58,058 nucleotides of DNA from Chiloscyllium plagiosum (taxonomy: Eukaryota): the NCBI RefSeq assembly GCF_004010195.1, contig NC_057724.1:64878293-64936350 (forward strand), read 5' to 3'. Shown here one piece after another: positions 6,431 through 58,045 of the stretch; within the stretch, counting starts at the first letter, position 1, and each line of letters begins with the position of its first letter. Both the position numbers and the translations under genes were made by a program. The notes beneath the pieces are model-generated. The model saw only the letters and a program-made list of their open reading frames with translations. It searched no databases and had not been told where the DNA came from.

Positions 6431-7377
6431 AAAGTAATTTTCTAATTCTCTTCCTGGTGTTGAAAAATCATTGAATTTCCACTGGCCTTAAACTCTGAAG
6501 AAAGCTGAATTTCTCCAAGTATAACCTCAGTTGCACCCACTTAGCCCCATTTACTTTGGCCTTGCCATTAGTTACCTAAGCACTGCAATTCACTCCTTAA
6601 AAGGTACTATGTAACTGTTACATAAAATGAAAATTGGAGGGCTCTTCTGGTGCATTGGTAGAGTCCTGACATTCTAAGCCAGAAGACACTGGTTCCCACA
6701 TGTTCCAGTATTTAATACCATGGATGGATAGGTTGATTGCAAAATATATTTTAAAAATTATGGTCAAAGAGAATAATTTGGATTTTACCAAGTGTTTTTT
6801 TTTGGGGGGGTGGGGAGGAGAGAATTTGATCACATTGTCCCAGACTGCAGGCTAACTTAATTAGTTGCATGATGTTATTTGTTGAGTTCCAACATCTCAA
6901 GGTCTCTGCTCCATCCCATCTGCCCACTGTGTGGTGGCACAGATAGATTTGCTTTGTAGCAACAGGAAGAGGGTTATTCGGCTAAAGACAGGGAGCCATT
7001 CGAGGGGTTGTGGTGTGCCCCTGCTCTATGCCAGACCAGCAGCCCCGCGCTCTCACGCAGGACCTGTCACAGCAGGAGAATGCAGAAAGCATTCGGTCCC
7101 CCCCTCCTGCCAGCGGATGTTCCATCTCCTACACAGAGCAGGCTGGCTCCAGCTCCATCTCGGGCAAGGCTTTTCTTGTGCAAATTCCCGACTGAAAATG
7201 ATCGCAAGCCATAAGACCCACTCCACCCACACGGTGTTTGTAGAAGGTTTGATGCCGTGTCCCACCCTTTTCTCCACTATCACCCTCGTTTGAAATGAAG
7301 TCGGCTGCGATCGCTTTCCCCCCCCCCCCCTCCTTCCTCCCTTCCTCCCTTGCATGTGCCTGTCGTAAAACACTCAC

Positions 7378-7531
7378 TTTTGATGGCGTTGATGAGCGAG
7401 GTGCCATCCCTGATGACTTCCTTGATGAATTTGTTCGTCCTCTCCAGCTCCTGCTCGTAAGATTTGAGCCGCTCCCTGAAATCCGGACTGTCCAGGGAGC
7501 AATCACTGAACTCCAGCGGAGGGTGGCCCAT
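7378..7531 (-). CDS. OPHN1: Oligophrenin-1 (BAR-PH-RhoGAP, GRAF family), first coding exon; the gene continues leftwards out of the window
   Basis: [51 protein letters not shown] matches the OPHN1 N-terminus as I recall it ([37 protein letters not shown]). The 154-nt coding portion is followed by a GTGAGT donor at 7377-7372. Good Kozak context (AACATGG). Confidence 0.93.
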
Positions 7532-8170
7532 GTTGGATTCGGAATCTTACACCCACTCCTTTCCTCGGTATTCTCCTTTCCAATCCACAGCTCCTCGGCT
7601 TTAACAGCCTTGTCTTAGGTTTAACGCTCAGTCCTGTCTTTTCTTGGGGTGTGCGATTACAGCTGAGTTTGTCACCGCTGATCAGCTGTTAGCGGGGCCA
7701 ATGGAAACAATGGTTGTGGTTTAATTGTTTCTCAATGTTACCAAATGTATCCTTGCTGTTTCAAGGCTGTCTCTTCCTCTGGGCGCCGGGCGCTGTAAGG
7801 GCAGCAAGCAGATGTATTTGCAGCCCTCGCCAGGTTGCCCCCTTCCCCTACCAACCACCCTCTGTCTCTATGTTGTGCTGCAGCAGCTCATCCCTAGGAT
7901 ATCACACCCACAAACGGATCGCATCACCTCCCGGGACACCCTGCAGTTTGTAGCGCTCCCGTCAGCGTCATAGCCAGAAGGGAGGAGCGGAGAGAGGAAA
8001 GGGAGGGGAGAGAGGTTGGAACTTTTAACACATACCGCACTGAGGCTTGTGATAGCTCGAACACAGAGCTTCTCTCAATCGCTTCAATTTGCAACTTAAG
8101 GCAGCTTCGACCTATGACAAAAAAGGGAGCGTTGTTTGGGGTCACGTTAATTTTCTACTTTATTCGTCGC
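7532..8170 (-). promoter_or_regulatory. Probable 5' UTR and promoter of OPHN1
   Basis: Repeat-free and relatively CpG-rich. CCAAT at ~7698, purine-rich tract at 7975-8015. No polypyrimidine/AG acceptor just upstream of the ATG. Confidence 0.5.
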
Positions 8171-12224: not shown

Positions 12225-12895
12225 AAGGGTTCAGGTACATCATTCCTTGAATTTGGCATCACATGTCGACAGGGTGATTAAGAAGGCATTTAGCACGCTT
12301 GCCTTCATTGATCAGACCTTTGATTATGAGACTTGAGACATTCATGTTGAGGTTGTGCAGGATGTTGGTTAAGCCTCTTCTGGAGTTTGGGGTCCAGTTC
12401 TTATCACTCTGTTATAGGAAGAATAGTCTTAAGCTGGAGAGGGCTCAGAAAAGATTTACTGGGATGTTGCTGAGAATGGAGGGTTTAAGTTATAAGGAGA
12501 AGCCTGGGACTTTTTTTCACTGAAGAAATAGGAGGTTGAGAGGTGACCGTACAGAAAATTCTGAGGGGTATAGATAATATGAATGGCAGGTGTCTATTCC
12601 CAAGGTAGTGAATTTCAAGGCTAGGAGGCATTTTTTCAATGTGAGAGGAGAAAGAATTTTAAAAAAGACGAGAGGCAACTTTAATACACAAAGAGTGGTT
12701 TGTATGTGGGATGAACTTCCAGAGGAAGTTGTAGTTGTGGATACAGTTATTTGATATTTGAATATGTACATGAATAAGAAATGTTTGGAGGATATGGGCC
12801 AAGTGCAGTTAGATGAGACTAGATTAGTTTTGGATTATCATCGGCATGGACAGGTTGGACTGAATGATCTGTTTCTGTGCTGTTTGACTCTATGA
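12225..12895 (+). mobile_element. CR1-clade LINE 3' fragment
   Basis: LVKPLLEFGVQF, KLERAQKRFTGML; ends TGACTCTATGA. Confidence 0.85.
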
Positions 12896-13167
12896 ATCAA
12901 TAACTCTTTTTCCAATGAGAACAAATTATCTGTCAGCAGAGGTGGCCAGTTCTGTTAGCTGCAATGCTCTAAAGCTAAAACTGTGTTAAGATTTTGTCTA
13001 AATTAATGATTAATAAAATAAGATTTTAACACATAGAAGATCCAAAAGACATGAGGCAGAGATTCTTTAATTCACTGGCATTACAGACATGAAGAGAAAT
13101 TAATGTTAAACATGGAAGCATTTACATGGAACAAAGCCTGTGGTTTAAATTGGGTTGAGGAACTAGT

Positions 13168-13450
13168 GGGGCAGCACAGTGGCTCAGTGGTTAGCACTGC
13201 TGCCTTACAGCACCAGGGACCCAGGTTCGATTCCAGCCTTGGGTGCCTGTCTGTGTGGCGTTTTCACATTGTCTGCGTGGGTTTCCTCTGGGTGCTTTGG
13301 TTTCCTCCCACAGTCCAAAGATGAGCTGGCCAGGTGAATTGGCCATTCTAAATTGCCCATAGTGTTAGGTGCTTTAGTCAGAGGGAAATAGGTCTGTGTG
13401 GACATGTTAGGCCAAAGAGTCTGTTTCTACACTGTAGGTAACCTAATCTA
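13168..13450 (+). mobile_element. tRNA-derived SINE (same family as 9131-9449)
   Basis: GGCAGCACAGTGGCTCAGTGGTTAGCACTGCTGCC head, B box GGTTCGATTCC, CTAATCTAA tail. Confidence 0.88.
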
Positions 13451-13681
13451 AAACTGGGTTTTTGTCAGTCTGCTGCTTCTTCCATGTGGCCTGTTACCCC
13501 AAGACAACTTTTGTTCCAGAGACAGTGAATTTGACTGCTCCAGCTATCCTTCCTCTCCTTCGCTGCCTACCTGGAGAAGGTCCCAGTTCCTCTGCTTGGT
13601 ATCTTCCATCACTGTTCCCACTTGCTGTTGGAGGTTATGTTACATCCTTGCTTAAAACTTGCTGATCTTGCAACTGTAAAT

Positions 13682-15320
13682 AGAGTCATAGAGATGTACA
13701 GCAAGGAAACAGACCCTTCAGCCCAATTCGTCTATGCCAACAAGATATCCAAAATAAATCTAATCCCATTTTCCAGCATTGGGCCATATTCCTCTAAACC
13801 TTTCCTGTTCATGTACCCATCCAGATGCCTTTTAAATCTTGTAATTGTACCACCCTCCACCATTTCCTCTTTCCTATAGCAGGGAGACCAGAAGTGAATA
13901 CAGTATTCCAAGAGTAGCACACAGAGACTGGCTGCTAAGCTGTTGCTTGTTTAGTAGCTTCATTCGCACCACAATGACCGTAAAGCACACACCCATATTC
14001 TTTTTGCATCACTGACCTGGACAAGTGAAAATATTGAGGCAATATCCGGCATTTGCTCATGGAGACCTATGCAGCTTCTTATCAGTACTGCTACAATCCA
14101 AGGGATACTGTGTGGCAGATCACCCACATTGGTGTGCAGTCAGTCAGGGCTCCCGGAGTCATATGCTTAATAGCACATTATTTCAGTTTCCATCTCCAGG
14201 CAAGTCCTCCCATTGCGATTTTTCAGGATGGGAGAAGGTATCCACATGTCCAGGATTCACAACAACCTGAGACCATAAAACCTGTGGCCCATCGAATCTG
14301 CTCCACTACTCGATGAGATCATAGTTGATCCGAAAATGTCAACGCCACTTTCTTGCCTATCCCCATAATCTTCAATTCCCTTGCTTATTAAAAATCTATT
14401 TGTTTCAGCCTTGCATGTACTTAACAACTCAACCATCTAGGGAAAAAAATTCACCGTCTCACTATCCTCTGACAGAAGAAATTCCTCCTCATCTTTGTCT
14501 CAAGTGGGTGACCCCTTATTCTGAGATTATGTCTTCTGATCCTAGACTCTTCCCCAAAGGGAAATAAGCCACTTTGCATTTACTCTGTTAAGTTCATCAG
14601 ATCTATATTTCAAGAATGTCACCTCTCATTCATCTAACCTTCTATGAGTATGATCCCGACCTACTCAACCTCTCCCCATAAGAAAATCCCTCCGAGCATG
14701 GAATCAGTCGAGTGAACTTTCTCTGGACTGTTCCAGTGTCAGTATATTCTTTCTTTAGATAATGGGGCCAAAATAAGGGGCATTCTAAGTGTGGTCTAAC
14801 TCATATAGTTGTATAGCTTATTGTTGTTTTAGCAAGACCTCCCCATTTTTGTGCTCCATTTCCTTTGAAGTAAAGGCCAATAATCTGTGAGCTTCCACAT
14901 TTCCTTCTGAATTTGGATGCTAGCATTTTTATGTTTCTTGGGCCCAAGGACTGCCAAATCGTTCTGTTCCAGAGTCATAGAGTTATAGAGTCATACAGCA
15001 TAGAAATAAGACCCTTCAGTCCAACCAGTCCATGCCAACTATAATCCCAAACTAAACTAGTTTCACCTGCCTGTGCTTAGCCCATAACCCTCCACCCCAC
15101 AAACATTTCTTATTTATATACTTAACTAAATGCCTTTTTAACATAACTGTATCCGCATCCACCACTTCCTCTGGAAGTTCATTCCACACACAAACCTCTC
15201 ACTGTGTGAAAAAATTATCCCTCGTGTCTTTTTAAATCTTTCTCCTCTCTCCTTAGAATGTATGGCCCCAATTTTGAAATTCCCTGCCCTAGTGAAAAGA
15301 CACCTGCCATTCTATACCCC
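13682..15320 (-). mobile_element. Several CR1-clade 3' fragments with some unique sequence between them
   Basis: TAGAGTCATAGAG tails at 13681 and ~14971; minus-strand peptides FKRHLDGYMNRKG and LEYCIHFWSP. Confidence 0.75.
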
Positions 15321-17257: not shown

Positions 17258-17959
17258 ATTCAGTGACTTAGCCTCCATAACTTTTCTCTTGTGATTAAGA
17301 ATTCCACAAATTCAATACTGTCTGAGTGAAGAACTGTTTCCTCATCTCAGTCCTAAATAGCCGACGCCATATCCTGACACTGTGAACTCTGGTTTAGACT
17401 CCCCAACCAGGGAAAACATATAATAAAAACGAGCATGCTGGAAAAACTCAGCAGGTTTGGTAGCATCTATGAAGAGAGAAACAGTTAACTTTTTGAATTC
17501 AATATGACTCTTCTTCAGAATTTCCTGCATTCATCTCTCTTAGAATTTTGTATATTTCAATCTGACTCCCCTCTTGTTTCTAAACTCTCGTAAATGCAAG
17601 CCCAATCAAATCAATCTCTCCATATAGGACTATCCAATCAACCTTACTCTCAGTCTAGTGAAACTTCACTGGACTCTCTTTCTTAGGTGAGGAAATTAAA
17701 ATTGCATACAATACTCCTGATGTGGTCTCACCAAATCCACGATCAACTACAACAAGACATCCCAACGTCTGAACTCCAGTCCGGTTGAAATTAAGGCCAA
17801 CATACCATTTGCATTCCTAAATGTTCGCTGCATCTACCTGTCTACCTTCATTGAATAGTATATAAGAACACCCAGACCCCTTTGTATATCCAATTTCTGA
17901 ATATATCACCTTTTAAATTGTACTCTTCCACTCATTCAACTTGACTAAACCTTGAAATT

Positions 17960-18085
17960 CCTGAAGAAGGGCTTATGCCCAAAACGTCGATTCTCCTGCT
18001 CCTTTGATGCTGCCTGACCTGCTGTGCTTTTCCAGTAACACATTTTCCAGCTCTGATCTCCAGCATCTGCAGTCCTCACTTTCTC
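17960..18085 (+). mobile_element. Short PLE 3'-end insertion starting at a hammerhead motif, with 15-bp TSD
   Basis: CTAAACCTTGAAATT at 17945-17959 and 18086-18100. The insert begins CCTGAAGAAGGGCTTATGCCCAAAACGTC (G12 mutated to A). Confidence 0.8.
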
Positions 18086-18929
18086 CTAAACCTTGAAATT
18101 TCCTTGCACAACTCACAATCCTACCCCCTTTTGTGTCATCAAAAAACATGCAAAATGTTGCATTTTGTTCCTTTTTCCAGGTAAATTATATTGACCGTGA
18201 TTGCTGGGGCCCTAGCAGTGATCCTTGTAAAGAGTCATTTATTCCTACTGTCTATTTCCTGTCTGAGAGGGGACATATTTAGACTGTGAAAGTGCATTAG
18301 CAAGACAAGGAAAATACGTATTATGAATGGGTCCAGGTTCTCTGATGCAGTGTATCAGCTGAGTAACTATCCAATGGGCACTAGGGAACCACAGAATTGA
18401 AACAACAGACTTTCATACCCATTTCCCTTTGAGGTTCAAACATATGGCAGCTGCTGTACAATTTGAAATATTTTCATCAGGCTTTTCAAAATATTTGTAC
18501 ATGTAATTCCCAAATTTATAGTCAAGCAAGATATAAGATTGACAAGGTACACAGTTGGCTGTTACATCTATCATTGAATTTCTTTTGCTTACGAAAACTT
18601 GAAAAAGTGTTCCACCTTTTTCCCTCACTGTTTAAATCAGACTATCCCATTTTACAGTATGGCACTCAGTAAAGAGACACATCAGTTGACCATAGGAACA
18701 GTAGTAAGTGAAAGCAGTGGCATTGCTGATCAAAATTCAACAGTTGACAAACCTACATAATGCAGTGACAGATTGAATAGCTAACAGGCCATATGTTGTC
18801 AATACTGATTTTGTGCAAATATGCTCTTGCAGTTGTCAGAGGATGCATAAGGATGTGACTATTATTTCAATATTAATTCACTTGACAATAATTGAGAATC
18901 TCAGATGTTTCAGACATACATCAGCAGCA

Positions 18930-19850: not shown

Positions 19851-21249
19851 CATTTCAAAAATATACTTTATTTATAAAATTATTTTGATATCTATACAAT
19901 TGGTGACGCCATACATCCGTATTCATTGCATTTCTTTACATGCAGAGATCGGTATTAATCATTCGTATATACAAGTCTGTACATCGACTATCCAGATATT
20001 CTGCTAAGGCGTCAGCGGAGCCCAATTTCTGGGTGGGCCTCCTGTTCTTTTTAGGCAGGATGAAGTAACTAAGTAAGACGCGTGTTGCATATCTGTCGAC
20101 TTAGGTGAAATTCAATTCAACGTACATGCATGGTATATAGGAAGCCGTATTAAGCATAAGTGGGCGCCATCTATTGACATGTAACATCTGCTTTTTGTTT
20201 GTAAATCAGGGGAGAGCACGGACACAGTCCCCCACTACCACAAATTTTGCAGTCGAGTATCCCGCATTTGGGGAAATCGCAGGCATCAGCACACCCGAAG
20301 TGCAATGGGATAGCCCCGTCCTGGAAGAACTTTTTTTTAATTTCAAAAATATGCTTTATTCATAATATTATTTTGATATCTATACAATTGGTCATTCCAT
20401 TCTTATGCACACATCGCACTTCTTTACATACAGACATCGGAATTAATCATTCGTATATACAAGTCTGTACATTGACCATCCAGATATTTTGCTCAGGCAT
20501 CAGTGGGGCCCAATTTCTGAGTGGGCCCCCTGTTCTTCTTGGCAGGCAGATGTTACACGGTGGTCTTTCCCCACTACGCCTTGGCAGCAGCTGCCCCAAG
20601 CTTCAGCGCGTCCCTCAACACGTAGTCCTGGACCTTGAAATGTGCCAGTATGCAACACTCAGTCGGGGTCAACTCCTTCAGCTGGAAGATCAACAGGTTT
20701 CGGACAGACCAAAGAGCATCTTTGACCGAGTTGATGATCCTCTAGGCACAGTTGATGTTCGTCTTAGTGTGCGTCCCGGGGAACAGACTGTAGAGCACGG
20801 AGTCTCGCGTCATGGAGCTGCTCGGGATGAACCTCGACAAATACCATGCATTCCTCTCCAGACTTCCTTTGCATAGGCACATTCCAGAAGGAGGTGTGTG
20901 ACAGTCTCATCCCCTCTGCAGCCGCTTCGAGGGCAGTGTGCGGATGGCAGAGAGTCCAGGCGTGCATAAAGGATCTCACAGGCAGAGTCTTTCTCACCAC
21001 CAACCGAGCCATGTCTTGGTGCGTGTTGGAAAGTTCTGGCGATGAGGTATTCTACCTTACTTAGTTACTTCATCCTGCCTAAGAAGAACAGGGGTCCCAC
21101 CCAGAAATTGGGCTCCGCTGACGCCTTAGCAGAATATCTGGATAGTCGATGTACAGTCTGCCCAGGGAACCAGTCAACAGGATCCGCCCTCTCCTTTTCC
21201 CTAAGGGTTTCAAGGACACTACGTGTTGACCACTTCCTGATGGACTTTG
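19851..21249 (-). mobile_element. Composite Tx1 insertion (ORF2 3' part, 3' UTR, partial U1 gene plus flank, second Tx1 3' UTR) inside a PLE fragment
   Basis: GTTACCATA at 19842-19850 and 21250-21258. PLE sequence is contiguous across the two flanks. Tx1 segments are homologous to 113-831. Confidence 0.8.
20207..20330 (-). pseudogene. RNU1: U1 snRNA, nt ~41-164 only (5' 40 nt missing)
   Basis: Minus strand reads GTTCTTCCAGGACGGGGCTATCCCATTGCACTTCGGGTGTGCTGA...GCGATTTCCCCAAATGCGGGATACTCGACTGCAAAATTTGTGGTAGTGGGGGACTGTGTCCGTGCTCTCCCCTG, with the U1A loop ATTGCAC, the Sm site AATTTGTGG and the terminal stem-loop. Confidence 0.93.
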
Positions 21250-23624: not shown

Positions 23625-24206
23625 AGTTTTAAGATTTGTAGCTCAGGTTGAGGTTCTTGATGTCGGTTTGCTCGCTGAGCTGGAAGGTTCATTTCCAGAC
23701 ATTTCATCACCCTACCAGGTAACATCTTCAGTGGGCCTCAGGCGAAGCACTGTACATGATTCCTGCTTTGTATTTATATGTTTGGGTTTCTTGGGGTTGG
23801 TGATGTCATTTCTGTGGTGATGTCATTTTCTTTTTCTCAGGGGGTGGTAGATGGGGTCTAACTCAATGTGTTTATTGATAAGAGTTCCAGATGGAATGCC
23901 ATGCTTCAAGAAATTCTCATGCGTGTCTCTGTTTGGCTTGACCTAAGATGGATGTGTTGTCCCAGTCGAAATGGTGTCCATCCTTATCTGTATGTGAGGA
24001 TACTAATTAGAGTGGGTCATGTCGTTTTGTAGCTAGTTGGTGTTCATGTATCCAGGTGGGTAGTTTTCTGCTTGTTTGTCCAATGTAGTGTTTGTTACAG
24101 TTCTTGCATGGCATTTTGAAAATGACATTAGTTTTGTTTGTTGTCTGTATAGGGTCTTTCAAGTTCATTAGCTGCTGTTTTAATGTGTTGGTGGGTTTGT
24201 GGGCTA
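23625..24206 (-). mobile_element. Penelope-like element 3' fragment (GIY-YIG endonuclease)
   Basis: NVIFKMPCKNCNKHYIGQTSRKLPTWIHEHQLATKRHD. Hammerhead-like CTGAAGATGTTACC...GATGAAATGTC on the minus strand at ~23695-23732. Confidence 0.88.
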
Positions 24207-25592: not shown

Positions 25593-26568
25593 CTGCAAAG
25601 ACAAAGGAATTTTGAATAAGGGAAGTCATGCATTTCACAATTTAAATACATTATAAAATGACACAATTACACAAATGCAAAAATAAGAAAACCAGATTTT
25701 ATGATATTCAGTGTGGAAATGTTACTGGACATGACAGCCAACAAGAAAGATGAGATAGGTATTTTCTGGATGAGGACACAAAGCATTCATTAATAATTAA
25801 AGGTTTGACTCAAGATTTGTGGCTTGGGTGCCAGTTGCTGCAGTTGAGGGTATGTTTGCCAAGCTGGGAAGTTGATTTGCAGACATTTCGTCTCCTGTCA
25901 AAGTGACATCTTCAGTGATTTGGAGCCTCCTGTGAAACACTATGTCTTCCGGAATTTATTTGGTTCTGTTCCTGCTGCTTCTGGTTGCCAGTTCCAGTTG
26001 CTCATTGTATTGGCCGGTATATTGGGTCTAGGTCAATGTACTTGTTGATGTCGTCCGTGCTTCTAGAAATTCTCTAGCTGTCCTCTATTTGGCTTGTCCT
26101 ATTTTCATTGTGTTGTCCCAGTTGAATTTGCAGTCCTTGTCATTTGTGCGTGTGGCTGTGAGGTACAGTTGCTCATGGTGTTTAGTGGCAAGTTGATGTT
26201 CGTGGATGCGGGTTGCAAGTTGTCTGCCTGTTTTCCCTATATAGTGTTGCGTGCAGTCTTTGCATGGCATCTTGTAAATTACGTTTGTCTTGCCAATAAT
26301 GGGTATAAGACCTTTTGTCCTGGTGAAGTGGTGTCTGAGCATGGCTGTCGGTTTATGGGCGGTCATGAATCCCAGTGGTCAGAGAGGTCTGGCTGTCAGA
26401 TTTGAGACACTTTTTTTGTACAAAAGGTAGCGTGGCTAGTGAGTTGGGTTGCTGGGTTGTTTGTCTGGTAGACACCTCCGGATGAAGTTGCAGGGATATC
26501 GATTCTTGGTAAATACTCTGTCGGGGTGTTCTTCTTCCCTTCATAGGTCAGGAGTGCTGCAGTGTGTT

Positions 26569-26779
26569 TTGGCTGAAAATGTGTTGCTGGAAAAGCACAG
26601 CAGGTCAGGCAGCATCCAGGGAACAGGAGAATCGACGTTTCGGGCATAAGCCCTTCTTCAGGAATGCTTATGCCCGAAACGTCGATTCTCCTGTTCCCTG
26701 GATGCTGCCTGACCTGCTGTGCTTTTCCAGCAACACATTTTCAGCTCTGATCTCCAGCATCTGCAGACCTCACTTTCTC
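26569..26779. mobile_element. Fold-back short PLE-derived insertion with hammerhead motif
   Basis: Arms 26572-26652 and 26666-26746 are reverse complements. TSD CTGCAGTGTGTT at 26557-26568 and 26780-26791. Confidence 0.85.
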
Positions 26780-27254
26780 CTGCAGTGTGTTATAGTCCGT
26801 TTGAACAGGGTTCTAATGCAGTTTCTCTTGTGTGTGTTTGGGTGGTTGCTGTTTTAGTTCAGGACCTGGTTGGTGTGTGTGTGGTTTTCCTGTACACTTA
26901 CGTGGTGCATTCACCATTCTGTATTCATTCTACCATTATATCTAGGAATGGGAGTTGAATGTTGGTTTCCTCCTCTCTTGTAAACCTGATCCCTGTGGGC
27001 ATAGGGTTGATCATCTGGTGTGTGCTCTTGATTTCTATTCTTTTAATAACAAAAGTGGTGTTCACGTATCTGATTCAGAGTTTGGATTGGATTTGTGGGA
27101 GGGCTGTTTGTTCCAGTCTTTGCATCACTAATCCTGCAATGAGCCCAGGGATGGGTGAGCCCATAGGTGTTCCATTGATCTATTCATATATTTGGTTGTT
27201 GAGTGTTAAGTGTGTTGTCAAGCACAGGTCTAGTAGTTTGAGTACATAGTCCTT

Positions 27255-27565
27255 TTTTTTTTAAAAGGCTCCCTACAGTGTGGAAACAGGCCCTTCGGCC
27301 CAACTGACTCTCAGAAGAGTAACCTCCCAGACCCATTTCCCTCTGACTAATGCACCTAAAATTATGGACAATTTAGCATGGCCAATTCGCCTGACCGGCA
27401 CATCTTTGGACTGTGGGAGGAAACTAGAGCACCCGGAGAAAATCTATGCAGACACGGGAAGAACGTGCAAACTCCACACAGACAGTCACCCGAGGCTGGA
27501 ATCGAACCTGGTACCCTGATGCTGCAAGGCTGCAGTGCTAACCACTGAGCCAACGTGCCACCCCA
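27255..27565 (-). mobile_element. tRNA-derived SINE
   Basis: Reverse complement of the 9131 family (GCAGTGCTAACCACTGAGCC, GGAATCGAACC). Confidence 0.87.
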
Positions 27566-28169
27566 CTTGTTGGTAGGTTCCCATCTTGTTGTCTGTTTGC
27601 CTGGGCCAACACAATAATCATAGGGACAAACCAAACAGAGGACAGCCAGAGAATTTCTATGATAATGGCACTCATCCACAGATGCCATCAACAAGCATAT
27701 AGACCTAGACACAATATACCAATCACTACCATGAACAACCGGAAGCAGCAGGAACAGAACTTAATAAATTCCAGAATTCACAGTACAAAAGTGTTTCATA
27801 GGAGGCTCCAAAGCACTGAAGATGTCATCTAGATAGGGGCAAAACATCTGCAAATCAACTTCCCAGCTTGGTGAACATACCCACAACTACGACAATTCAT
27901 TAATAATAATAAAAAGCACAGTAAATTCTGCTACACAAGAATTATCCTTAGTTAATTAAGTATGGAAAGTAGATTAACCAAATAGCACAAGTAACAATGA
28001 TAGGACAATGTATGTTGCAGCTGTGGAATATCAGAGCATTTGGATGCTCAGGAAATCCAGGACAAATCATCTGCAGAATGTTTCAGCAGTTAGAGGAATT
28101 CCTGATCAAGATTTCTGAAAGCTGAACTGCAGACACTCCACAACACATAAAAAGGGTAGATCTATCTGT

Positions 28170-32673: not shown

Positions 32674-32886
32674 CTGTAATAAGAAAAAGCAGTATGCTTT
32701 GACAGAATGGATTTAAAAAAGGAACGGCAATGCAAATAGTTATAATAATACATTACAAATAAGTCAGATTGTTTCTGGTCAATCAGTTGAAGTTAAATCA
32801 CAATATTCGATATTCTGCATCAAGACTTTGTCTTAAAATATTGGTGTGTTCAAGAAACACTGGTTGTTTGGATGAACATACACCCT

Positions 32887-33115
32887 GGAGGAGAAAGTGA
32901 GGTCTGCAGATGCTGGAGATCAAAGTTGAAACTTTATTGCTGGAACAGCACAGCAGGTCAGGCAGCATCCAGGGAACAGGAGATTCGACGTTTCGGGCAC
33001 AGGCCCTTCTTCAGGAATGATTCCTGAAGAAGGGCCTGTGCCCGAAACGTCGAATCTCCTGTTCCCTGGATGCTGCCTGACCTGCTGTGCTGTTCCAGCA
33101 ATAAAGTTTCAACAC
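32887..33115. mobile_element. Fold-back short PLE-derived insertion with intact hammerhead cores on both strands
   Basis: Near-perfect inverted repeat centred on 33019. TSD TGAACATACACCCT at 32873-32886 and 33116-33129. Confidence 0.88.
33019..33056 (+). ncRNA. Minimal type I hammerhead ribozyme motif (mirror copy on the minus strand at 32982-33018)
   Basis: GATTC-CTGAAGA-A-GGGC(CTGT)GCCC-GAAAC-GTC-GAATC: stem I GATTC/GAATC, CUGANGA and GAAA cores, 4-bp stem II, palindromic ACGT in place of stem III, GUC site. Confidence 0.78.
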
Positions 33116-34722
33116 TGAACATACACCCTACCTCCTCAAACAGGAGATGGCACAAGTTAAATAAAAACTGAAATAACTGCAGATGTTGTAAATCAGAAAC
33201 AAAAACAGAAATTGCTGGAAAAGCTCATTAGGTCTGGCAGCATCTGTGAAGAGAAATCAAAGTTAAAGTTACGGATCAAGTGACCCTTCTTCAGCACATG
33301 GGTTAGTTTGACCTCAAATTAGGGGTTTACACTGTTGTGTCACAAATAGATTGGAACCAATAGGCAAATGGCAGGCCAATGCAAGAAGCAAAAAAATACA
33401 AACGGCCTTGGATTTCTTTGGGGACAAATGAATAGACGGACCTAGGTGAATGGGGAAAATTACTTGCAAATGGTTTTCAATATCGGAAAACGTGAGGACA
33501 TCTGCTTTTGGTCTAAAGAAGGTAGTCCAGATAGTTTGCAATGGTGAGAAGCAAGATGCAGCAAAGACTCAAAGAGACTTGGAGTTTAGGTACATAGATC
33601 AGAAAATGTCAATGTTAGCTATGATATTTAGTCAACAAAAATATACGAGGAACAGAAGTCATGCTTGAAGCTATTCTAATCCCTTATTAATCAAAACTTG
33701 GAGAACTGAGCACAGTTTTAAAGAGAAGAGGATAAGCTGCCTTTATGGAATTCAGTGTAGATTCACAAAAATAACCAAGACTTGGTGTCATGCTGGATGA
33801 GAGATCACACAAATGAGAATTATATTGCTTGGAATTCACAAGGTTAAAAAGATGATTTTGATCAAAGTCAAGGTAATGGACTGGGTAAATTGAAAGAAAA
33901 CATTTCTACTGGTTGGGGATAGTTTGCAAACTAGAACTAGAACTAGAGTTATCAAAAGTGAAATTAAGAACCTCCTTTATACAGAAGGTAGGAAAGGTTT
34001 GGAATTTTCGACAAACTGCAACTGAATCTAGATTCATAGTTTTGTTAGCTAAAAAGGCACAAGGAACACGAGGCAAAGGCAGGTATATGGAGAGTTAAGT
34101 CACAGGTCAGCCATGGCATCACTGAAGATGGGACAGGCTCAAGGGGCTAGATGAACCCTTCTGTCCAACGATGGGACTTCGAATATAGATATCAATAAAA
34201 GGGTCAGGCTCATATACAGAAAAAATGTCTTTTGAATAGTTTAGAATTTGCAACAGTAAGAAGTAGGAATTAAAGGGCTTTTTGAAATCCCATCGGATAA
34301 ATATTAATATTTTAGGTTGAATGGTCGATAAAAAGTACAAAGAAAATTGGAATTGTTGATGACAAATTTAAAATGTCATGTGTCACCAACCATATTATTG
34401 AGCAATAAAAATTAATCAAAAACAATTATTTCCCATGAAATGAAGCTGAAATTCAATTTTAAAATTAAAGTTAAAAACACATATACCTGAATAAGATTAT
34501 AAATACCTATTATGACATGACATCAAAATTTGCATATTTGTGATCCAAAACAAGTTCAGAGATATTAAATTGTTCCTTAATGGTGGCTCCTCAAAATCCA
34601 GAATACACGCTGCAGGTGCAAGTGTAAACAGAATATGAAGTACTTAGCAGCTCATAAGTGTTCATTGCCTCCTTCCCTTTCATTGTGCGTTAACGCATCT
34701 TTTTTCAGCATGCCATATTTAC

Positions 34723-40493: not shown

Positions 40494-41171
40494 TCAAAGT
40501 TTGTGCGAAGATTTGTAGCTCAGGTGCTCGTTGTTGTGGTTCTGTTCGCCGAGCTGGAAGTTTTTGTTGCAAACGTTTCATCCCCTGGCTAGGCGACATC
40601 ATCAGTGCTTGGGAGCCTCCTGCGAAGCGCTTCTTTGATGTTTCCTCCGGTGTTTATAGTGGTCTGTCCCTGCCGCTTCCGGTTGTCAGTTTCAGCTGTC
40701 CGCTGTAGTGGTTGGTATATTGGGTCCAGGTCGATGTGTTTGTTGATGGAGTTTGTGGATGAATGCCATGCCTCTAGGAATTCCCTGGCTGTTCTCTGTC
40801 TGGCTTGCCCTATGATAGTAGTGTTGTCCCAGTCGAATTCATGTTGCTTGTTGTCTGCGTGTGTGAATTCGACTGGGACAACACTACTATCATAGGGCAA
40901 GCCAGACAGAGAACAGCCAGGGAATTCATAGAGGCATGGCATTCATCCACAAACTCCATCAACAAACACATCGACCTGGACACAATATACCAACCACTAC
41001 AGCGGACAACTGAAACTGACAACCGGAAGCGGCAGGGACAGACCACTATAAACACCGGAGGAAACATCAAAGAAGCGTTTCGCAGGAGGCTCCCAAGCAC
41101 TGATGATGTCGCCTAGCCAGGGGACGAAACGTTTGCAACAAAAACTTCCAGCTCGGCGAACAGAACCACAA
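40494..41171. mobile_element. Young fold-back Penelope 3'-end insertion with ~305-bp inverted arms
   Basis: 40533-40838 is the reverse complement of ~40866-41171. Both arms encode FDWDNTTIIGQARQRTAREF.EAWHS. TSD CATTATAATTTCT at 40481-40493 and 41172-41184. Confidence 0.9.
41097..41136 (+). ncRNA. Minimal type I hammerhead motif of a second PLE family (mirror copy at ~40568-40608, minus strand)
   Basis: GCA-CTGATGA-T-GTC(GCCTAGCCAGGG)GAC-GAAAC-GTT-TGC. Confidence 0.7.
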
Positions 41172-43874: not shown

Positions 43875-44100
43875 GGAGAAAGTGAGGACTGCAGATGCTG
43901 GAGATCAGAGCTGAAAATGTGTTGCTGGAAAAGCGCAGCAGGTCAGGCAGCATCCAGGGAACAGGAGAATCGACGTTTCGGGCATAAGCCCTTCTTCAGG
44001 AATATTCCTGAAGAAGGGCTTATGCCCGAAACATCGATTCTCCTGTTCCCTGGATGCTGCCTGACCTGCTGCGCTTTTCCAGCAACACATTTTCAGCTCT
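43875..44100. mobile_element. Fold-back short PLE-derived insertion with hammerheads on both strands
   Basis: Spacer-less palindrome centred on 44003/44004 (CTTCAGGAAT|ATTCCTGAAG). Degenerate TSD TGGACTCTTTATATG / TGGACTATTTGTATG. Confidence 0.85.
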
Positions 44101-44302: not shown

Positions 44303-47260
44303 CAAAAACAGAAATTGCTCGAGAAAACTTAGCAGGCCTGGCAGCATCTGTGGAGAGAAAGCAGAGTCAACATTTTGAGTTCAGTGACCCTTCTTCAGAA
44401 CTGGTAGTAGCCAAGAAAAGGTGGGAAAGGGGTGAGCAAATAGATACAGACAGAGCACAAAGAGAGAAATAAAATAAGAATGTTTGGAAGATACAGTAAA
44501 GGGATGGTTGATAGTATGCCAGGGAAGAAGAAAAGCTGATAATGGGGACAAAGAGTAGGTGACAATGAGTTAGCTGTGTTGAAAGAGATCATGTCACAAC
44601 AGGTCCCCAGATGGGTAAAGAACATGAAAGGTGGTGTTCAGACTGTAACATTATTGAAGTTAATAGAATCCTGAAAGCTGCACAATCCCCAAGCAGAAGA
44701 GGAGCTGCTGTTCGTCCAGCTCATACTGACCCTCACTAAACACTACAGCAGGCCTGAGATAGAAATGTTGGCCAGGGAACAGAGTGATGTGTTGAAATAG
44801 CAGGCAAGTGGAAGCTTGGGTCATTTTTATGGACAGAATGTAGGTGTGCTGCAAAGCAATCATGCAGTCTGCATTTCTTCTCCCCAACATTTGTGAGTAG
44901 CAAATACAGATGAGATTGAATGAAGAGCAGGTAAATCACTGCTTCACCTGAAAGGTGTGTTGGGAGACTTGGATAGTGATGAGGTAAAGGGGCAAATGTT
45001 GCACCTTCTCACATTGCATGGGAAGGTGCCTTCAGGGTTCAGGGAGTGGTCCTTGGGGAGTGGGAATGGAAGAGGAGTCCTGGAGTGCATGGTCCTTGCA
45101 AAATGCTGATAATGCACGTAGAGGGATGTAGATCTGGGGATAGCATCCTGCAGAAGTTGTCAGAAACAGCAGATTATGATCCTTCAGATATAGATGATAT
45201 TAAGCGTGAGGACCAGAGGGACCCTGTCAGTGTTGTGGCAGGGAGAGAAGGTGTGAGGACAGAATGATGAGAAACAGGTCAGACACGGCCAATGGCCTAT
45301 CAACCAGGGTGTCAGGGAATCCTCGGTTGAGGAAAAAGGTGGATATTTCTGAGGTCCCCTTGCAGAAGGTGGCATCATCAGAACAAATGCAATTGAGACA
45401 AAAACAGAGAATGGAACGGAGTTCTCTCATCTGCCACTGCCCCACTGCCTAGCTCTTAGTTCCCCCATCCTGAACTGCCTGCTTTTCCCTTCTTCCAAAA
45501 TTCTACACAGTTCTGCTGAGGCAGATCCATTCTTTCCACCTTTCTTACTCCACTGAACTTGTTTCTTCCTAACAAGTTTTTTGTCCCCTTGTCTAGTCCC
45601 TTCCCATTTACGTCTGTAAACCTGATGCTTTGTCAGATTCAAAATTTCCAGTTTGCAGGCATCAGTCATCTCCTCTTCACCACGGATGGGCAATCTTTCT
45701 AAACGTCCATCCCTCATCAGAATGGACTTGCTCTCACTTCTTCTTGGAAGATGATCTGAACTGCCCTCATTCACAACTACCACGCTCCACCTGCACATCT
45801 TCAATTTGAACAACTTCTTCTCACTTTATTCAGACCATAGGTGTGGCCACGAGTACCCAAATGGGCAGCAGTTATACTTGTCTCTTTGTTGGATATGTGG
45901 AACATTCCTTGTTCCAAGGCAACTCGAGTCAGTCCCAACAATTCTTTCTTCAACAAATCAATTATATCCTCGGTGCTGCTTCCCTCGCTTGTTCGGAATT
46001 GGAAGGATTCATCAATTGCACCTCCAATGCCCATCACACTCTCACCTTCACTTGGTCCATCTCTGTTCCCTTTATGGGGACAGGCTAGCCATTGATAATC
46101 ATGACAAACCAATTGACACACACACAGTTATCTAGACTATACATCCTCACACCCTGCTTCCTGCGATAACTCCATTCCAATCTCCAGCCTCTCAGTTCTG
46201 ATGATGCTACCTTCCACAGGGTGAGCTGAGAAATGTCCAATGTTTTTCTCAGCCAAGGACACCATCATGGTTAATAGGGTCTTTACCTGTGTTTAACCTT
46301 TGTCTTCCCTATTACAACACTTACAGACTCCCCCCAGTCCTCATTTTCCACAACAGTATCAACATCCAAAGATCATAAGCTGCCATTTCCACCACCTCCA
46401 GTGGAATGCCACCAAGCAGACCCATATTCCCCTCGCCTCCTTTGTCATTGTTTTTCAGTAACCACTCTCTCCAAGACATCCTGGTCCATTCCTCCTCCAC
46501 TCCCAACACCACTCTCAGCACCTTCCACACAAAAGCAGAAGATGCAACACAAGCCTCTTTACCCCTTACAATCAAAGGCTCCAGACACACATTCCAGATG
46601 AAGCAGCAATTTACCTGCACTTCACTTAATCCAGTTCACTGTATTCACTGCTCACAATATGGTTTCCTCTATCCTGGGAAGATGAAATGCAATGCATTTA
46701 CTCAGTCTGCAGTACACCCAATGATCCCGAGCTTCTGGTTGCCTGCCACTTCAACATACCGCTGTGCTCCCTGGCCAACATTTCTTTCTCTGTTCTGCTG
46801 CAGTGCTCCAGTGGAGCTAAGCACAAGCTAGAAGAACAGCACCTTATCTTCCACTTGGAAATGCTGCAGCCTTAAGTACTCAATATCAAGTTCAATAATT
46901 TTAAAAGCCTGAACACTTCCTTTATCCTACAACCTGTCATGACATGATCTGCTTTCAGTACAGCCAACCCATTTTCACCAACTCATTGTCCCCATTTATC
47001 AGCTTTTCACCTATTCCTTTGTCTGCCTAACTCTCTCTCCGGGTTCCATCTCCACCTATCCACACACCCCTTCTCACCACCACATCTTCCTGCCCCTCCT
47101 GCACCCACAAATCCATTGCCATTGTTATCACATAAATACCACCTTTTCCTAGCTACTATCAGTTCTGAAGACTGGTCCATGAACTTGAACATAAACACTG
47201 CATTCACACCACAGATGCTGCCAGACCTGCTGACTTCCTCCAGCAATTTCTGTTTCTGCT
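44303..47260. mobile_element. Old Penelope-like element pair in inverted arrangement (minus ~44303-45420, plus ~45800-47260)
   Basis: GVATSTQMGSSYTCLFVGYVE (RT motif), QQFTCTSLNPVHCIHCSQYGFLY (GIY-YIG region), KLEEQHLIFHL; homologous text on the opposite strand at 44650-45400. Confidence 0.78.
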
Positions 47261-48886: not shown

Positions 48887-49126
48887 GCCTGAAACTAAAA
48901 GAGAAAACGCTGGAAAATCTCAGCAGGTCTGGCAACATCTGTAAGGAGAGAAAAGAGCTGACGTTGCGAGTCTAACTGACCCTTTATCAAAGCTTTGACA
49001 AAGGGTCAGTTAGACTCGAAATGTCAGCTCTTATCTCTCCTTACAGATGCTGCCAGACCTGCTGAGATTTTCCAGCATTTTCTCTTTTGGTTTCAGATTC
49101 CAGCATCCGCAGTAATTTGCTTTTAT
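48887..49126. mobile_element. Fold-back short PLE-derived insertion (third variant) with decayed hammerhead cores
   Basis: Palindrome centred at ~48992 (TCAAAG|CTTTGA); TTGACAA-AGGGTC(AGTTA)GACTC-GAAATGTC; TSD CCAATTTTGGA at 48876-48886 and 49127-49137. Confidence 0.8.
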
Positions 49127-51471: not shown

Positions 51472-51930
51472 CTCAGGTAAAAACAATGACTGCAGATGCT
51501 GGAAACCAGATTCTGGATTAGTGGTGCTGGAAAAGCACAGCTGTTCAGGCAGCATCTGAGGAGCAGTAAAATCGACGTTTCGGGCAAAAGCCCTTCATCA
51601 GGAATACAGGCAGAGATACCTGAAGGGTGGAGAGATAAATGAGAGGAGCTGTAGAGAGAGGAGGAAAACTTCTTCAAGGCCGGCATCCTTGCAAGAGGAT
51701 TCGCAGTAGGGTTAAAAATCAACTAGGTAAAAACAGATGCTGGAAACCAGATTCTGGATTAGTGGTGCTGGAAAAGCACAGCATTTCAGGCAGCTCCTCT
51801 CATTTATCTCTCCACCCTTCAAGCACTCTGCCTGTATTCTTGATGAAGGGCTTTTGCCCGAAACATCGATTTTCCTGCTCCTCGGATGCTGCCTGAACTG
51901 CTGTGCTTTTCCAGCACCACTAATCCAGAA
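51472..51930. mobile_element. PLE-derived insertion with direct and inverted copies of the terminal repeat, inside a CR1
   Basis: CAGATGCTGGAAACCAGATTCTGGATTAGTGGTGCTGGAAAAGCACAG occurs at 51493 and 51735. 51793-51930 is inverted. Intact hammerhead on the minus strand at ~51570-51605. Flanks ATATCTATCA / ATATCAATCA. Confidence 0.8.
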
Positions 51931-53002
51931 TATATCAATCAGCCCTCAATTTAAAGCTATGCCCCCTCGCCGTCACCATTCTTGGAAAAAGGCTCTCCCT
52001 GTCCATCCTATCTAACCCTCTGATTATCTTATATGCCTCTATTAAGTCACCTCTCAACCTTCTTCTCTCTAACGATAACAGCCTCAAGCCCCTCAGCCTT
52101 TCCTCGTAAGACCTTCCTTCCATACCAGACAACATCCTAGTAAATCTCCTCTGCACCCTTTCTAAAGCTTCCACATCCTTCATATACCAGAACTGTACAC
52201 AATACTCCAAGTGCGGCCACACCAGAGTTTTGTACAGCTACAGCATAACCTCATGGTTCCGGAACTCAATCCCTCTATTAATAAAAGCTAAAACACTGTA
52301 TGCCTTCTTAACAATCCTGTCAACCCGGGTGGCAACTTTCAAGGATCGGTGTACCTGGACACCAAGATCTCTCTGCTCATCTATACTACCAAGAATCTTA
52401 CCATTAGCCCAGTACTTTGCATTCCGGTTACTCTGACCAAAGTGAATCACCTCACACTTGTCTGCATTAAACTCCATGTGCCACCTCTCAGCCCAGCTTA
52501 TCTATGTCTCTCTGTAACCTACAACATCCTTCGTCACCATCCACAACTCCACCGACCTTAGTGTCATCTGCAAATTTACTAACCCGCCCTTCTACGCCCT
52601 CACTTTAGTTGACCTATCTACATATTGACTCAGGAATCCTTCCTGGACACACCTGACAAAACCTGCTGCACCCAAACTATTTGAACTAACAACGTTCCAA
52701 TCAATATTAGGAAAGTTAAAGTCACCCATGACAACAATCCTGTTACTTCTGCACCTTTCCAAAACCTGCCTGCCAAGGTGCTCCTCTGTGTCTCTGTTGC
52801 TATTGGGGAGTCTGTAGAAAACTCCCAATTAAGTGACTGCTCCTTTACTGTTTCTGACTTCCACACATACTGTCTCTGTAAACAAACCCTTTTTGACCAC
52901 CAGCTTTCTTAAACCAGCTTTTGACCACCGCATCTTCATAAACACAGTAACCATTTGAGGTCAGGATTGACTAAAGCTAGATTTTCACGTGAAAGTTTTA
53001 GA

Positions 53003-55369: not shown

Positions 55370-55590
55370 GGGAGAATCCCTACATTATGCCTGACAAGTC
55401 CACACTGACCCTCCAATGAGTAGTCAATCCAGACCCATTTCCCCTACTCTGTTACTGTACTCTACATTTACCCTGACTAATGCACCTAACCTACACATCC
55501 CTGAACATTATGGGCAATTTAGCAAAGCAAATTCACCTAATCTGCACATCTTTCGATTGTAGTAAGAAACCGGAGCACTCGGAAGAAATC
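55370..55590 (-). mobile_element. Partial tRNA-derived SINE
   Basis: GACTAATGCACCTAACCTACACATC, GGGCAATTTAGC, GAAACCGGAGCAC. Confidence 0.8.
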
Positions 55591-56416
55591 TGTTCCTGGC
55601 TTGGGTTGGAGGTTTCTGCGAAGTAGTCATTCAGCTTGTATTTAGTGTCCTGTGTGAGCAAAATCTAAATTAGATTTTGAAAATTTAAGCACTTGGGGTT
55701 TGCAACAATGGTAATTAGTCATTATAAAATCACATGTTGTGGATGCTGGAAATCAGAACTGTTGAATTTGTATGATTCTTCTTTAGAACATTCTAAAGAG
55801 GTGTCATTGTGGTCTGAACATTGAGCTCTGTTTCTCTCCTCTTGGGTATTGCCAGAACTGCTGAGATTCTGCAGCATTGTGTTAGTTAATGCTGAAAGAT
55901 GTCCAGTCCTTTATACGGCACTTAATTATCTTTAAATCATAATATGGAACCTTGATGAGATCACATTTAGAGTACTGTGTACAGTTGTGGGCTCCTTATT
56001 TGAAAAATGGTATAAGCATGTGGAGGCAGATCAGAAGCTTATTTAACTCCTTGCTTTTTTGAATTTAAGGCATAGCTTTTTATATTTTTTTTAAAAAAGC
56101 ATGGGCTGTACTGCTTGGAGCTTCATTATACTCCTTTGAAAAGTGATCTCTTACAGAGACTTTTATAGGGAAAACACCAGAAAGATTTCTGCCAATGTTG
56201 GAGAGATTCAGAATGGGAAATAGCTTAAGAACAATTTAAGATCTCTCCTTCTTAAGACTAATGAAGATAAATGAGTTGTTAGTGAAACACTCTTGTTTAA
56301 GTGCTATTCGCAGATCCCTATGACAATCTGCCCGCAATCAGCTTTTGAAAGTTCTTGTCTAATACTGTCAAAATTACCTTTCTCCAGTTTACAACTTCAA
56401 CTTTTAGATCTGTTTC

Positions 56417-56510
56417 ATTCCTGATGAAGGGCCTTTGCCCGAAACTTCAATTTTCCTGCTCCTCGGATGCTGCCTGTGCTGCTGTGCTTTTCCAGCACCA
56501 CTCAAATCTA
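56417..56510 (+). mobile_element. Short PLE 3'-end insertion starting at a hammerhead motif
   Basis: ATTC-CTGATGA-AGGGC(CTTT)GCCC-GAAACTTC; flanks AACTTTTAGATCTG / AACATTTAGATCTG. Confidence 0.72.
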
Positions 56511-56629
56511 AACATTTAGATCTGGTCTATTCTTTGTCATCACTATTTAAAAACTACTAGAATTATGGTCACTGGCCCCAAAGTGCTCCCTCACTGACAC
56601 CTCGGTCACCTGCCCTTCCTTATTTCCCA

Positions 56630-58045
56630 ATTTGTATCACCAATAGCCAATGGGTGAGCTGCTGGAAGACTGGCAGTTGGTTAGCGGGATGCCACTATTT
56701 AGGAAAATTGGTAAGGAAAAGCTAGGGAGCAATAGACGAGCGAGCCTGACATCGGCTGTCAGCAAGTTGTTGAGGAAACCTGAGGGAACTATTTACATGA
56801 TTTGGAAAAGCAAGGACTAATTAGGGATAGTCAACATGATTTTGTGCATGCGAACTAGTGACTGAGGTTGATTTGAGGTTTTTTTTGAAGTGACAAAGAA
56901 GATTTGAAGGCAGAGTGCTGGCGGTTATCTATATAGACTTCAGTAAGGTATTCAACGTTCCACAAGGTAAACTGGTTAGCAAACTTCGATCACGTGGAAT
57001 ACTGGGGGGATGAGCCATGTGGATACAAAATTGGCTTAAAGGTAGGAGACAGAAGATGGTGGTGGAGGGTTGCTTTTTGGACTGGTGCTGGGTCTACTGC
57101 TTTTTGTCATTACATAAATTTGATGTATGAGGTATGATTAATAAGCTTGCAGATAACACCAAAATTGGTGGTGTAGTGAACAACAAAGAAGGTTACCTCT
57201 GGTACAATCATATCTTGATCAGATTGGCCAATGGCTGAGAAATGGCAGATGGAGATAAATTTATACAGAGTTAGGTGCATTAGTCAGTGGTAAATATGGG
57301 GAATGGGTCTTGGTGGGTTACTCTTCAGAGGGTTGGTGTGGACTAGTTGGGCTGAAGGGCCTGTTTCCACACTGTAGGGGATCTAATCTAACAAATGTAA
57401 GGTGCATCATTTTGGTAGGGCAAATCAGGGCAGAGGTTATACACTTAATGGTCAGGATTTGGGGAGTGTTGCTAAACAGAGACCTTGGAGTGCAAGTTCA
57501 TAGTTCCTTGAAAATGGAGTTGCCAATAGACAGGATAGGGAAGAAGGCGTTTCGAATGCGTGCCTGTATTGGTCAGTGCATTGAGTATAGGAGTTGGGGT
57601 TTATGTTGTGGCTATACAGGATGTTGATTAGGCTACCTTTGGCATAATGTGTTCAAATCTGGTCTCCCTTCTATCGGAAAGATTTTGTGAAACTTGGAAG
57701 ATTCAGAAAAGATTTGAGAATGTTGCCAGGTTTGGAGGGTCTGAGTGTAGCGGGAATGCTGAATAGGCTGGGGCTATTTTCCCTAGAGTATTGGTGATTG
57801 AAGGGTGACATTATGGAAGGTACGTAAAATCACGAGGGGCATGGATAGGCTGAATAGCCAAAATCTTATCCCCAGGATAGGGGAGTCCAAAAGTAGAGGG
57901 TATGTGTTTAAGAGGGGCAAGATTGACATTATGGAAGGTACGTAAAATCACGAGGGGCATGGATAGGCTGAATAGCCAAAATCTTATCCCCAGGATAGGG
58001 GAGTCCAAAAGTAGAGGGTATGTGTTTAAGAGGGGCAAGATTTAA
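56630..58045 (+). mobile_element. Decayed CR1-clade LINE with a partial SINE at ~57268-57390
   Basis: GACTTCAGTAAGG, AAGCTTGCAGATAACACCAAAATTGGTGG, RDLGVQVHSSLK. Confidence 0.85.
57806..58042 (+). repeat. Tandem duplication, 2 x 118 bp
   Basis: TGACATTATGGAAGG...GGGGCAAGAT starts at 57806 and again at 57924; the copies appear identical. Confidence 0.9.

Follow-up and report, generated by a model that had tools for sequence, protein, structure and literature searches.

The four palindromic hairpins of a 58,058-nt stretch of the Chiloscyllium plagiosum genome (assembly GCF_004010195.1, NC_057724.1:64,878,293-64,936,350, forward strand; hereafter "the window") are head-to-head copies of a pseudo-LTR lying between target-site duplications (TSDs), each probably produced in a single insertion by twin priming. 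This reading is drawn from sequence comparisons, which also indicate that the arms are pseudo-LTR ends of an autonomous, Neptune-type Penelope-like element (PLE). As objects, the hairpins are ordinary, being stumps from a known class of retroelement whose layout has been published, and it is the mechanistic statistics that are worth following.

All four fold-back elements were found where the original prediction placed them, one arm is longer than the other in every case, and the copy-specific bases said to be common to both arms were seen on direct reading. Copy A spans about 32887-33117, with 99-nt arms (98% identical) and an exact 14-bp TSD at 32873-32886 and 33116-33129 on the plus strand. 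With positions counted from the first C of the CUGAAGA box, its tail-less arm runs from -4 to +90 (33020-33113, plus strand), and its tailed arm, a pseudo-LTR copy with an intact minimal hammerhead, occupies 32888-33019 on the minus strand (core from 33014, predicted cut at 32987). The PLE "tail" (arm +91 to +127; 32888-32924, minus strand) is present in the long arm only, in keeping with the bimodal 3' ends of 100 arms given below, and its layout agrees with that described by Arkhipova et al. 2013 (PMC3846280) and Frangieh et al. 2024 (PMC11167929). Copy B (subfamily B; 43875-44100; 98-nt arms, 99% identical) has a tailed arm with an intact core on the minus strand and a tail-less arm with a broken core on the plus strand, both beginning at -4, and its 15-bp TSD (43861-43875/44100-44114) carries 2 mismatches. 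Copy C (subfamily B; about 26569-26780; 80-nt arms, 100% identical) combines a tail-less minus-strand arm that starts at -5 and includes the core with a tailed plus-strand arm that starts at +11 and has no CUGAAGA box, between exact 12-bp TSDs (26557-26568/26780-26791). Copy D, of a divergent family D (48887-49126; 110-nt arms, 92% identical), has two decayed cores and an exact 11-bp TSD (48876-48886/49127-49137). The window also holds a fifth, longer pair (subfamily E; 51476-51931), both arms of which extend upstream into PLE 3' UTR around a rearranged middle, a solo tailed arm of subfamily B starting at -4 with a TSD (17957-18086, plus strand), and further solo or degenerate arms.

A motif scan identified a minimal type I hammerhead on both strands of copy A, with predicted cuts at 33051 and 32987, the first of which is the position anticipated for a cut after GUC. 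The plus-strand motif (33019-33056) consists of stem I (33019-33023/33052-33056), CUGAAGA (33024-33030), an extra A, stem II (GGGC/GCCC), and GAAAC-GUC, with the predicted cut after 33051. Hammerheads had been expected in both polarities in each element; copy A does carry two intact cores, but direct reading of the others found one in B, one in C, and none in D. The plus-strand core of copy B reads GAAACAUC, and the cores of copy D read GAAAUGUC on the plus strand and GCAACGUC on the minus strand. Among arms that reach the core, an intact one is present in 73 of 83 A arms, 18 of 29 B arms, 10 of 23 E arms, and 1 of 6 D arms. The family D hammerhead is a variant with a U3-A8 core, a 5-bp stem II, and an AGCU/AGCU stem I, and families A and D show concerted differences in stems I and II and in the 3-8 core pair, as judged by eye in few families. 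The assignment to minimal type I hammerheads of the PLE type, with an additional nucleotide following A9, is supported. No hammerhead model in Rfam, which is without a model matching these minimal ribozymes, matched any of the window elements; sub-threshold microRNA-hairpin matches appeared at copies C, B, and D, and nothing at A.

Fold prediction suggests that the hairpin context works against the ribozyme. In a lone A arm, stems I and II form with a predicted probability of 0.9 or more; for the whole of copy A, the hairpin has a predicted energy of -207.7 kcal/mol versus -147.1 kcal/mol for the fold constrained to the ribozyme, a cost of 60.6 kcal/mol. With a cost of this size cleavage is unlikely, and a cis dimer is impossible because the two cores lie on opposite strands. 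The ribozyme in a read-through hairpin transcript is therefore predicted to be trapped in an inactive form, and the expectation that transcription in either direction yields a ribozyme strand holds at the level of sequence only. If the hammerhead functions anywhere, this is most likely in tandem arrays or the source element and not in the stumps.

The source element is visible in copies that extend beyond the hairpin arms. Many solo arms continue upstream into a common pyrimidine-rich 3' UTR and then an endonuclease C-terminus (L031 and L111), and other copies continue into RT, linker zinc finger, and GIY-YIG sequence; because the arms run into 3' UTR, endonuclease, and RT sequence, we identify the arm as the pseudo-LTR of a coding PLE. 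This pseudo-LTR is present both after the end of the ORF (L031 and L111) and, past the tail, before the shared sequence in tandem copies (L123, L124, L127, and L216). Arms also extend downstream into N-terminal ORF-like sequence, and we take the piece in L123 to resemble a PLE N-terminus. An RT piece joined to the tail (L114) gave a weak RVT_1 match (E value of 3e-5, below the gathering score) and matches 130 proteins, the best at 85% identity, with the nearest named ones from sharks and rays; one relative, P0043, carries RVT_1 together with GIY-YIG. In a subfamily A copy (L216), direct reading found a CxxxxCxxC linker (CNRRRCNTC) followed by IIY...LYIG and His/Cys endonuclease residues, and a Pfam search with two short endonuclease pieces returned no match. 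The source RT and GIY-YIG domains were read in pieces from several copies, the long copies containing N runs. A CX2-5CxxC zinc finger between RT and a C-terminal endonuclease is described as marking Neptune and Nematis (Craig et al. 2021, PMC8557442), and our Neptune-type label rests on this linker motif, which is common to Nematis. Membership in the EN+ PLEs is indicated by the RT and GIY-YIG domains, the double pseudo-LTR, the one-end tail with inverted copy and TSD, and the minimal hammerhead. The separate noncoding class that had been proposed thus gives way to the pseudo-LTR of a coding element, while the proposed retro-derived rather than DNA-transposon origin is supported by the RT-encoding source.

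The hairpins are very abundant, as had been expected from the window. Exact head-to-head centres number 2,369 of the A type and 7,277 of the B type genome-wide, far above chance, with 0 in reversed-pattern controls, and a 30-base pattern from the middle of the subfamily A arm has 18,614 exact matches. A sample of 80 10-kb stretches placed arbitrarily (765,982 non-N bases), drawn from the larger chromosomes of this 3.56-Gb genome, contained 32 pairs and 103 solo arms, which by rough extrapolation corresponds to approximately 150,000 pairs and 480,000 solos genome-wide.

To describe the arm ends we used the first 100 exact A arms on contig 1, together with a pair census of 216 arms (at least 90% identity) that yielded 51 head-to-head pairs; 30 loci that best matched copy A were excluded from the end statistics, since they had been picked by their likeness to it. 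The 3' ends of the 100 A arms are bimodal, with 36 at +90 to +93, 58 at +122 to +131, and 6 between. Exactly one approximately 35-nt tail is present in 50 of the 51 pairs (P = 5e-14 versus independent assortment); 15 of the 51 came from a tail-selected search, and the remaining 36 follow the one-tail pattern without exception. One of the 51, a pairing of A with D (L205), is probably two unrelated insertions. Each of the two 3' ends is also found in solo insertions with TSDs, the 43 true solos comprising 27 tailed and 16 tail-less arms. Outside the best-match set, an exact duplication of 13 to 17 bp flanks 39 of 51 A pairs; searching for exact duplications found none in 12 of 51 A pairs and 77 of 114 solos. 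Of the 39 A pairs with a TSD, 36 show microhomology of at least 1 nt with the target at the inner end and 30 show it at the tail end. A DNA-transposon MITE would likewise be short, palindromic, flanked by duplications, and very abundant, but this explanation is refuted: TSD length is not fixed (11 to 18 bp overall), the tail on one arm keeps the inverted repeat from being terminal, and the arms are 5'-truncated ends of an RT-encoding element. The terminal and TSD signature of a DNA transposon, against which the original prediction was to be held, was looked for and not found.

Variation at the centres bears on how the two arms came together. Among the 30 best matches to copy A the outer ends are alike, yet there are 19 different centres, with the centre of the window copy present in 3 of them. 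Recurrent centres use short microhomology (e.g., TTC/GAA), are seen in both orientations relative to the tail, and reappear in subfamily B, and therefore form repeatedly. The notion that the hairpin is a mobile unit of its own, a nonautonomous palindromic element retrotransposing whole, would account for the nearly fixed outer ends and for the recurrence of some centres, the window's among them; it is largely refuted, and we consider it very improbable, since centres vary as described and the fixed ends are the RT start sites common to solos and long copies. Mixed A/B centres are rare, at 11 compared with 9,646 matched ones, so both arms nearly always derive from one source sequence, either one RNA copied twice or two RNAs from one locus. 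Five of the 11 mixed centres were inspected: one (L306) is a clear chimera, two (L305 and L308) differ at the loop alone, and two (L304 and L307) are older or nested. The arms of L306 (G000:C11:4414641) differ at several subfamily-diagnostic sites inside a 14-bp TSD, which suggests two RNA templates or a template switch.

That arms nearly always match in sequence type, and that many centres show short inverted microhomology, could also be explained by fold-back, the published interpretation of head-to-head pseudo-LTRs, in which a single cDNA, or an antisense RNA template as suggested in PMC3846280, self-primes the second arm and palindrome instability later reshapes the centre. We consider fold-back improbable. 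Of 50 pairs, the arm with the greater 5' reach is the tailed one in 21 and the tail-less one in 24, and the two are equal in 5, an asymmetry of which later deletions of palindrome centres could mimic part; that either arm may reach further argues against a simple fold-back, and in the 24 pairs neither arm contains the other, so that neither is a fold-back copy unless the centre was deleted later. The idea of a single template per hairpin consequently stands as regards one source sequence, but not as regards one arm having to copy the other. Further against fold-back, tailed and tail-less arms both exist as solos with the same 5' pileup, target microhomology is present at both outer ends, the arms of L306 differ at diagnostic sites within one TSD, and at one locus (L221) two arms, both starting at -4, are separated by 135 bp of unrelated DNA within a 15-bp TSD.

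Of the 100 A arms, 45 begin at -7 to -1, 17 further upstream, and 38 downstream, some of these downstream ends stemming from indels in the ungapped extension; the same peak, at -6 to -1, holds 19 of 52 B arms, 10 of 33 E arms, and 5 of 10 D arms. Hammerhead cleavage as the origin of these ends was rejected, since 3 of 100 arms start near the cleavage site. With 5' ends lying before the core and few at the cut, the template RNA would be uncleaved, as reported in PMC11167929, where RT copies uncleaved RNA and cleavage by the ribozyme is unnecessary. The template base preceding -4 is C. Immediately before -4, AG outnumbers AA genome-wide by 316 to 85 in A and by 1,186 to 382 in B, a 4.3- to 6.4-fold excess over the background, where AA exceeds AG; at a junction at +13, used as a control, the first 100 of 115 matches give 17:83, a figure in which AA may be inflated by inverted-arm junctions. 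In a small unselected sample the base before -4 is G in 10 of 26 cases, and many of the extra G's fall within the TSD or short filler. Fold-back on stem I was rejected as a general cause of the extra G, subfamily B having a different stem I and the same excess. In copy A, G33019 is either an added (cap-type) G or the last base of the other arm, and the extra G in general could be a cap-independent terminal addition.

We take TCATTCC, which fits subfamilies A and B, E in part, and D not, to be an initiator-like motif. In L1 insertions an additional G is the mark of a capped 5' end (PMC11702581), and the PLE promoter has been located in the pseudo-LTR (PMC2377424). From the extra G, the pseudo-LTR promoter, and the initiator-like motif together, we infer with moderate confidence that the pileup reflects run-off to a capped transcription start. 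That twin-primed insertions owe the pileup to stalling of RT or processing of the RNA where stem I of the hammerhead begins is a doubtful alternative to this one step. It draws on the pileup coinciding, in all four families, with the stem I 5' strand, even in D, where a clean initiator-like motif is absent, and on a D. virilis intron end reported at this spot (Cervera and de la Pena 2014, PMC4209133). Against it, a stem should stall RT on its 3' side, before being copied, the extra G sits specifically at -4 in two subfamilies with different stem I, and an AG acceptor at -4 is missing from A and B. No RNA run carrying the sequence was listed among the indexed runs. When two raw RNA runs were compared with a nonpalindromic long copy, one gave 0 reads and the other 1,113 reads on both strands, 93% of which continued into unlike sequence; among these 1,113 reads no pileup of starts or ends was present. 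At L111:1493, A>G differences occurred in 162 of 322 reads in one orientation versus 17 of 98 in the other (run X22) and were rare in the contigs of another run; this may be editing or one expressed variant locus, and we left it uncounted as editing.

In the twin-priming mechanism that we propose, a GIY-YIG endonuclease would nick both target strands approximately 14 to 15 bp apart, after which one target 3' end would prime RT at an outer start (the tail end, +125 to +131) and the other at an inner site (+90/91), each event aided by 1 to 4 nt of microhomology. Both cDNAs would copy uncleaved RNA through the hammerhead, and most would end at or just short of a fixed RNA 5' end, 4 to 6 nt before the core, that is probably a capped transcription start; with a capped start at this place, the template would be either the pseudo-LTR copy at the 5' end of the mRNA or a short transcript of that copy. 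The host would then end-join the two cDNA 3' ends, using microhomology or short templated filler, and priming from one end alone would leave a solo arm. The product would be a dead-end stump, its passenger ribozyme sequestered in approximately 95 bp of double-stranded RNA upon read-through. A more general version, to which we give about even credence, is that a dimeric RT-endonuclease primes both nicked strands at two dedicated starts, one per target end, and on the 5' pseudo-LTR of an mRNA capped at the hammerhead start makes strong-stop-like run-off cDNAs that are end-joined into palindromes, with some 150,000 stumps recording the reaction. If true, a single mechanism would explain PLE tails, inverted pseudo-LTRs, and the many short "nonautonomous" copies, and dimeric twin-start priming would replace the antisense self-priming model.

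Several other elements accompany the hairpins. A second PLE family is present in the window as an inverted pair with 310-nt arms (40494-41171), an endonuclease C-terminus, a hammerhead-like motif, one tail, and a 13-bp TSD; being another PLE family in the same layout, it serves as an internal control. Older relatives of this family lie at about 23830-24000 and 25830-27900. The segment 44305-47255 is an older copy of a PLE, which retains an RT remnant (45637-45917) and whose long inverted arms are about 80% complementary, and long diverged inverted pairs 1 to 2.4 kb apart, at 12656-15237 and 55389-57352, are probably older retroelement insertions. A stretch derived from U1 snRNA (19974-21159; Rfam U1, 77 bits at 20207-20371 on the minus strand, with a diverged 5' part) lies among inverted 104-nt arms and coding-like sequence, and we presume that it may be a U1-associated non-LTR element with an inversion. 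Elsewhere in the genome, the window hairpin family forms 224-nt tandem arrays in L123 and L124. Head-to-tail arrays with a 205- to 224-nt unit composed of hammerhead, arm, tail, and following sequence occur there (G000:C1:26521900-26522700), in L216, and at G000:C2:96929338-96929779; these are retrozyme-like, and their same-strand ribozymes could dimerise. L216 also contains a short-period tandem repeat array (1400-3400 and 6400-7700) that is host to a complex PLE insertion.

These findings matter in several ways. The origin of head-to-head pseudo-LTRs in PLEs is stated as open in the accounts of PMC3846280 and PMC8557442, and the steps after initiation are described as unvalidated in PMC11167929. 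Direct predictions for that in vitro system follow from the single tail per pair, from a 5' reach that is symmetric between the arms, from microhomology at either end, and from the G-marked pileup. On the order of 100,000 near-perfect hairpins of approximately 95 bp could feed RNA editing or small-RNA silencing, and in repeat annotation they may be mistaken for MITEs or microRNA precursors. Repbase or Dfam may already list the family. A literature search conducted largely outside the subscription journals turned up nothing published on these elements of the shark or on PLE twin priming.

Inverted pseudo-LTRs, a one-ended tail of 30 to 40 bp, and a TSD are published features of EN+ PLEs (PMC3846280; PMC8557442), and the shark insertions share with the elements described there the head-to-head pseudo-LTRs, the tail at one end, the TSD, and the hammerhead within the pseudo-LTR. 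They differ in consisting mostly of the pseudo-LTR alone, in their density of approximately 40 pairs per Mb, in the sharp 5' pileup, and in TSDs of 13 to 17 bp rather than the 8 to 10 bp given in those accounts, and they favour two sense-templated cDNAs over the antisense self-priming proposed in PMC3846280. The hammerheads resemble the metazoan PLE ribozymes of PMC4209133 in their 4- to 5-bp stem I, the extra nucleotide after A9, the absence of helix III apart from the palindromic ACGU, and the U3-A8 core variant (seen here in D). That study already noted opposite-strand hammerhead pairs 100 to 700 bp apart; in the shark, unlike the ribozymes described there, stem II is just 4 to 5 bp and the opposite-strand pairs abut and mask each other.

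The closest experimental parallel is Poseidon of Anolis carolinensis, studied in vitro (PMC11167929), where the tail is bounded by a pair of RT start sites, cleavage and extension take place on both strands, and uncleaved RNA is used, as we propose for the shark. The shark source is Neptune-type, unlike Poseidon, and its copies show short microhomology at both start sites, whereas initiation in vitro is described as proceeding without homology to the cleaved DNA; neither inverted pairs nor a 5' end made by run-off is derived in the Poseidon account, in its treatment of initiation. Non-LTR retrozymes (Li, Clavereau and Pollet 2026, bioRxiv 10.64898/2026.07.22.740005) are likewise noncoding derivatives of PLE pseudo-LTRs with type I hammerheads, but they are described as head-to-tail arrays with same-strand ribozymes, and the four window elements, arranged head-to-head, fall outside that definition. 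As in L1 twin priming (Ostertag and Kazazian 2001, as cited and tested in PMC11702581), the second target end would prime with microhomology, the TSD is kept, and the inner junction would be end-joined; in L1, however, the two cDNAs copy adjacent RNA segments, whereas in the shark both would copy the same approximately 95 nt from two fixed starts and so yield a palindrome.
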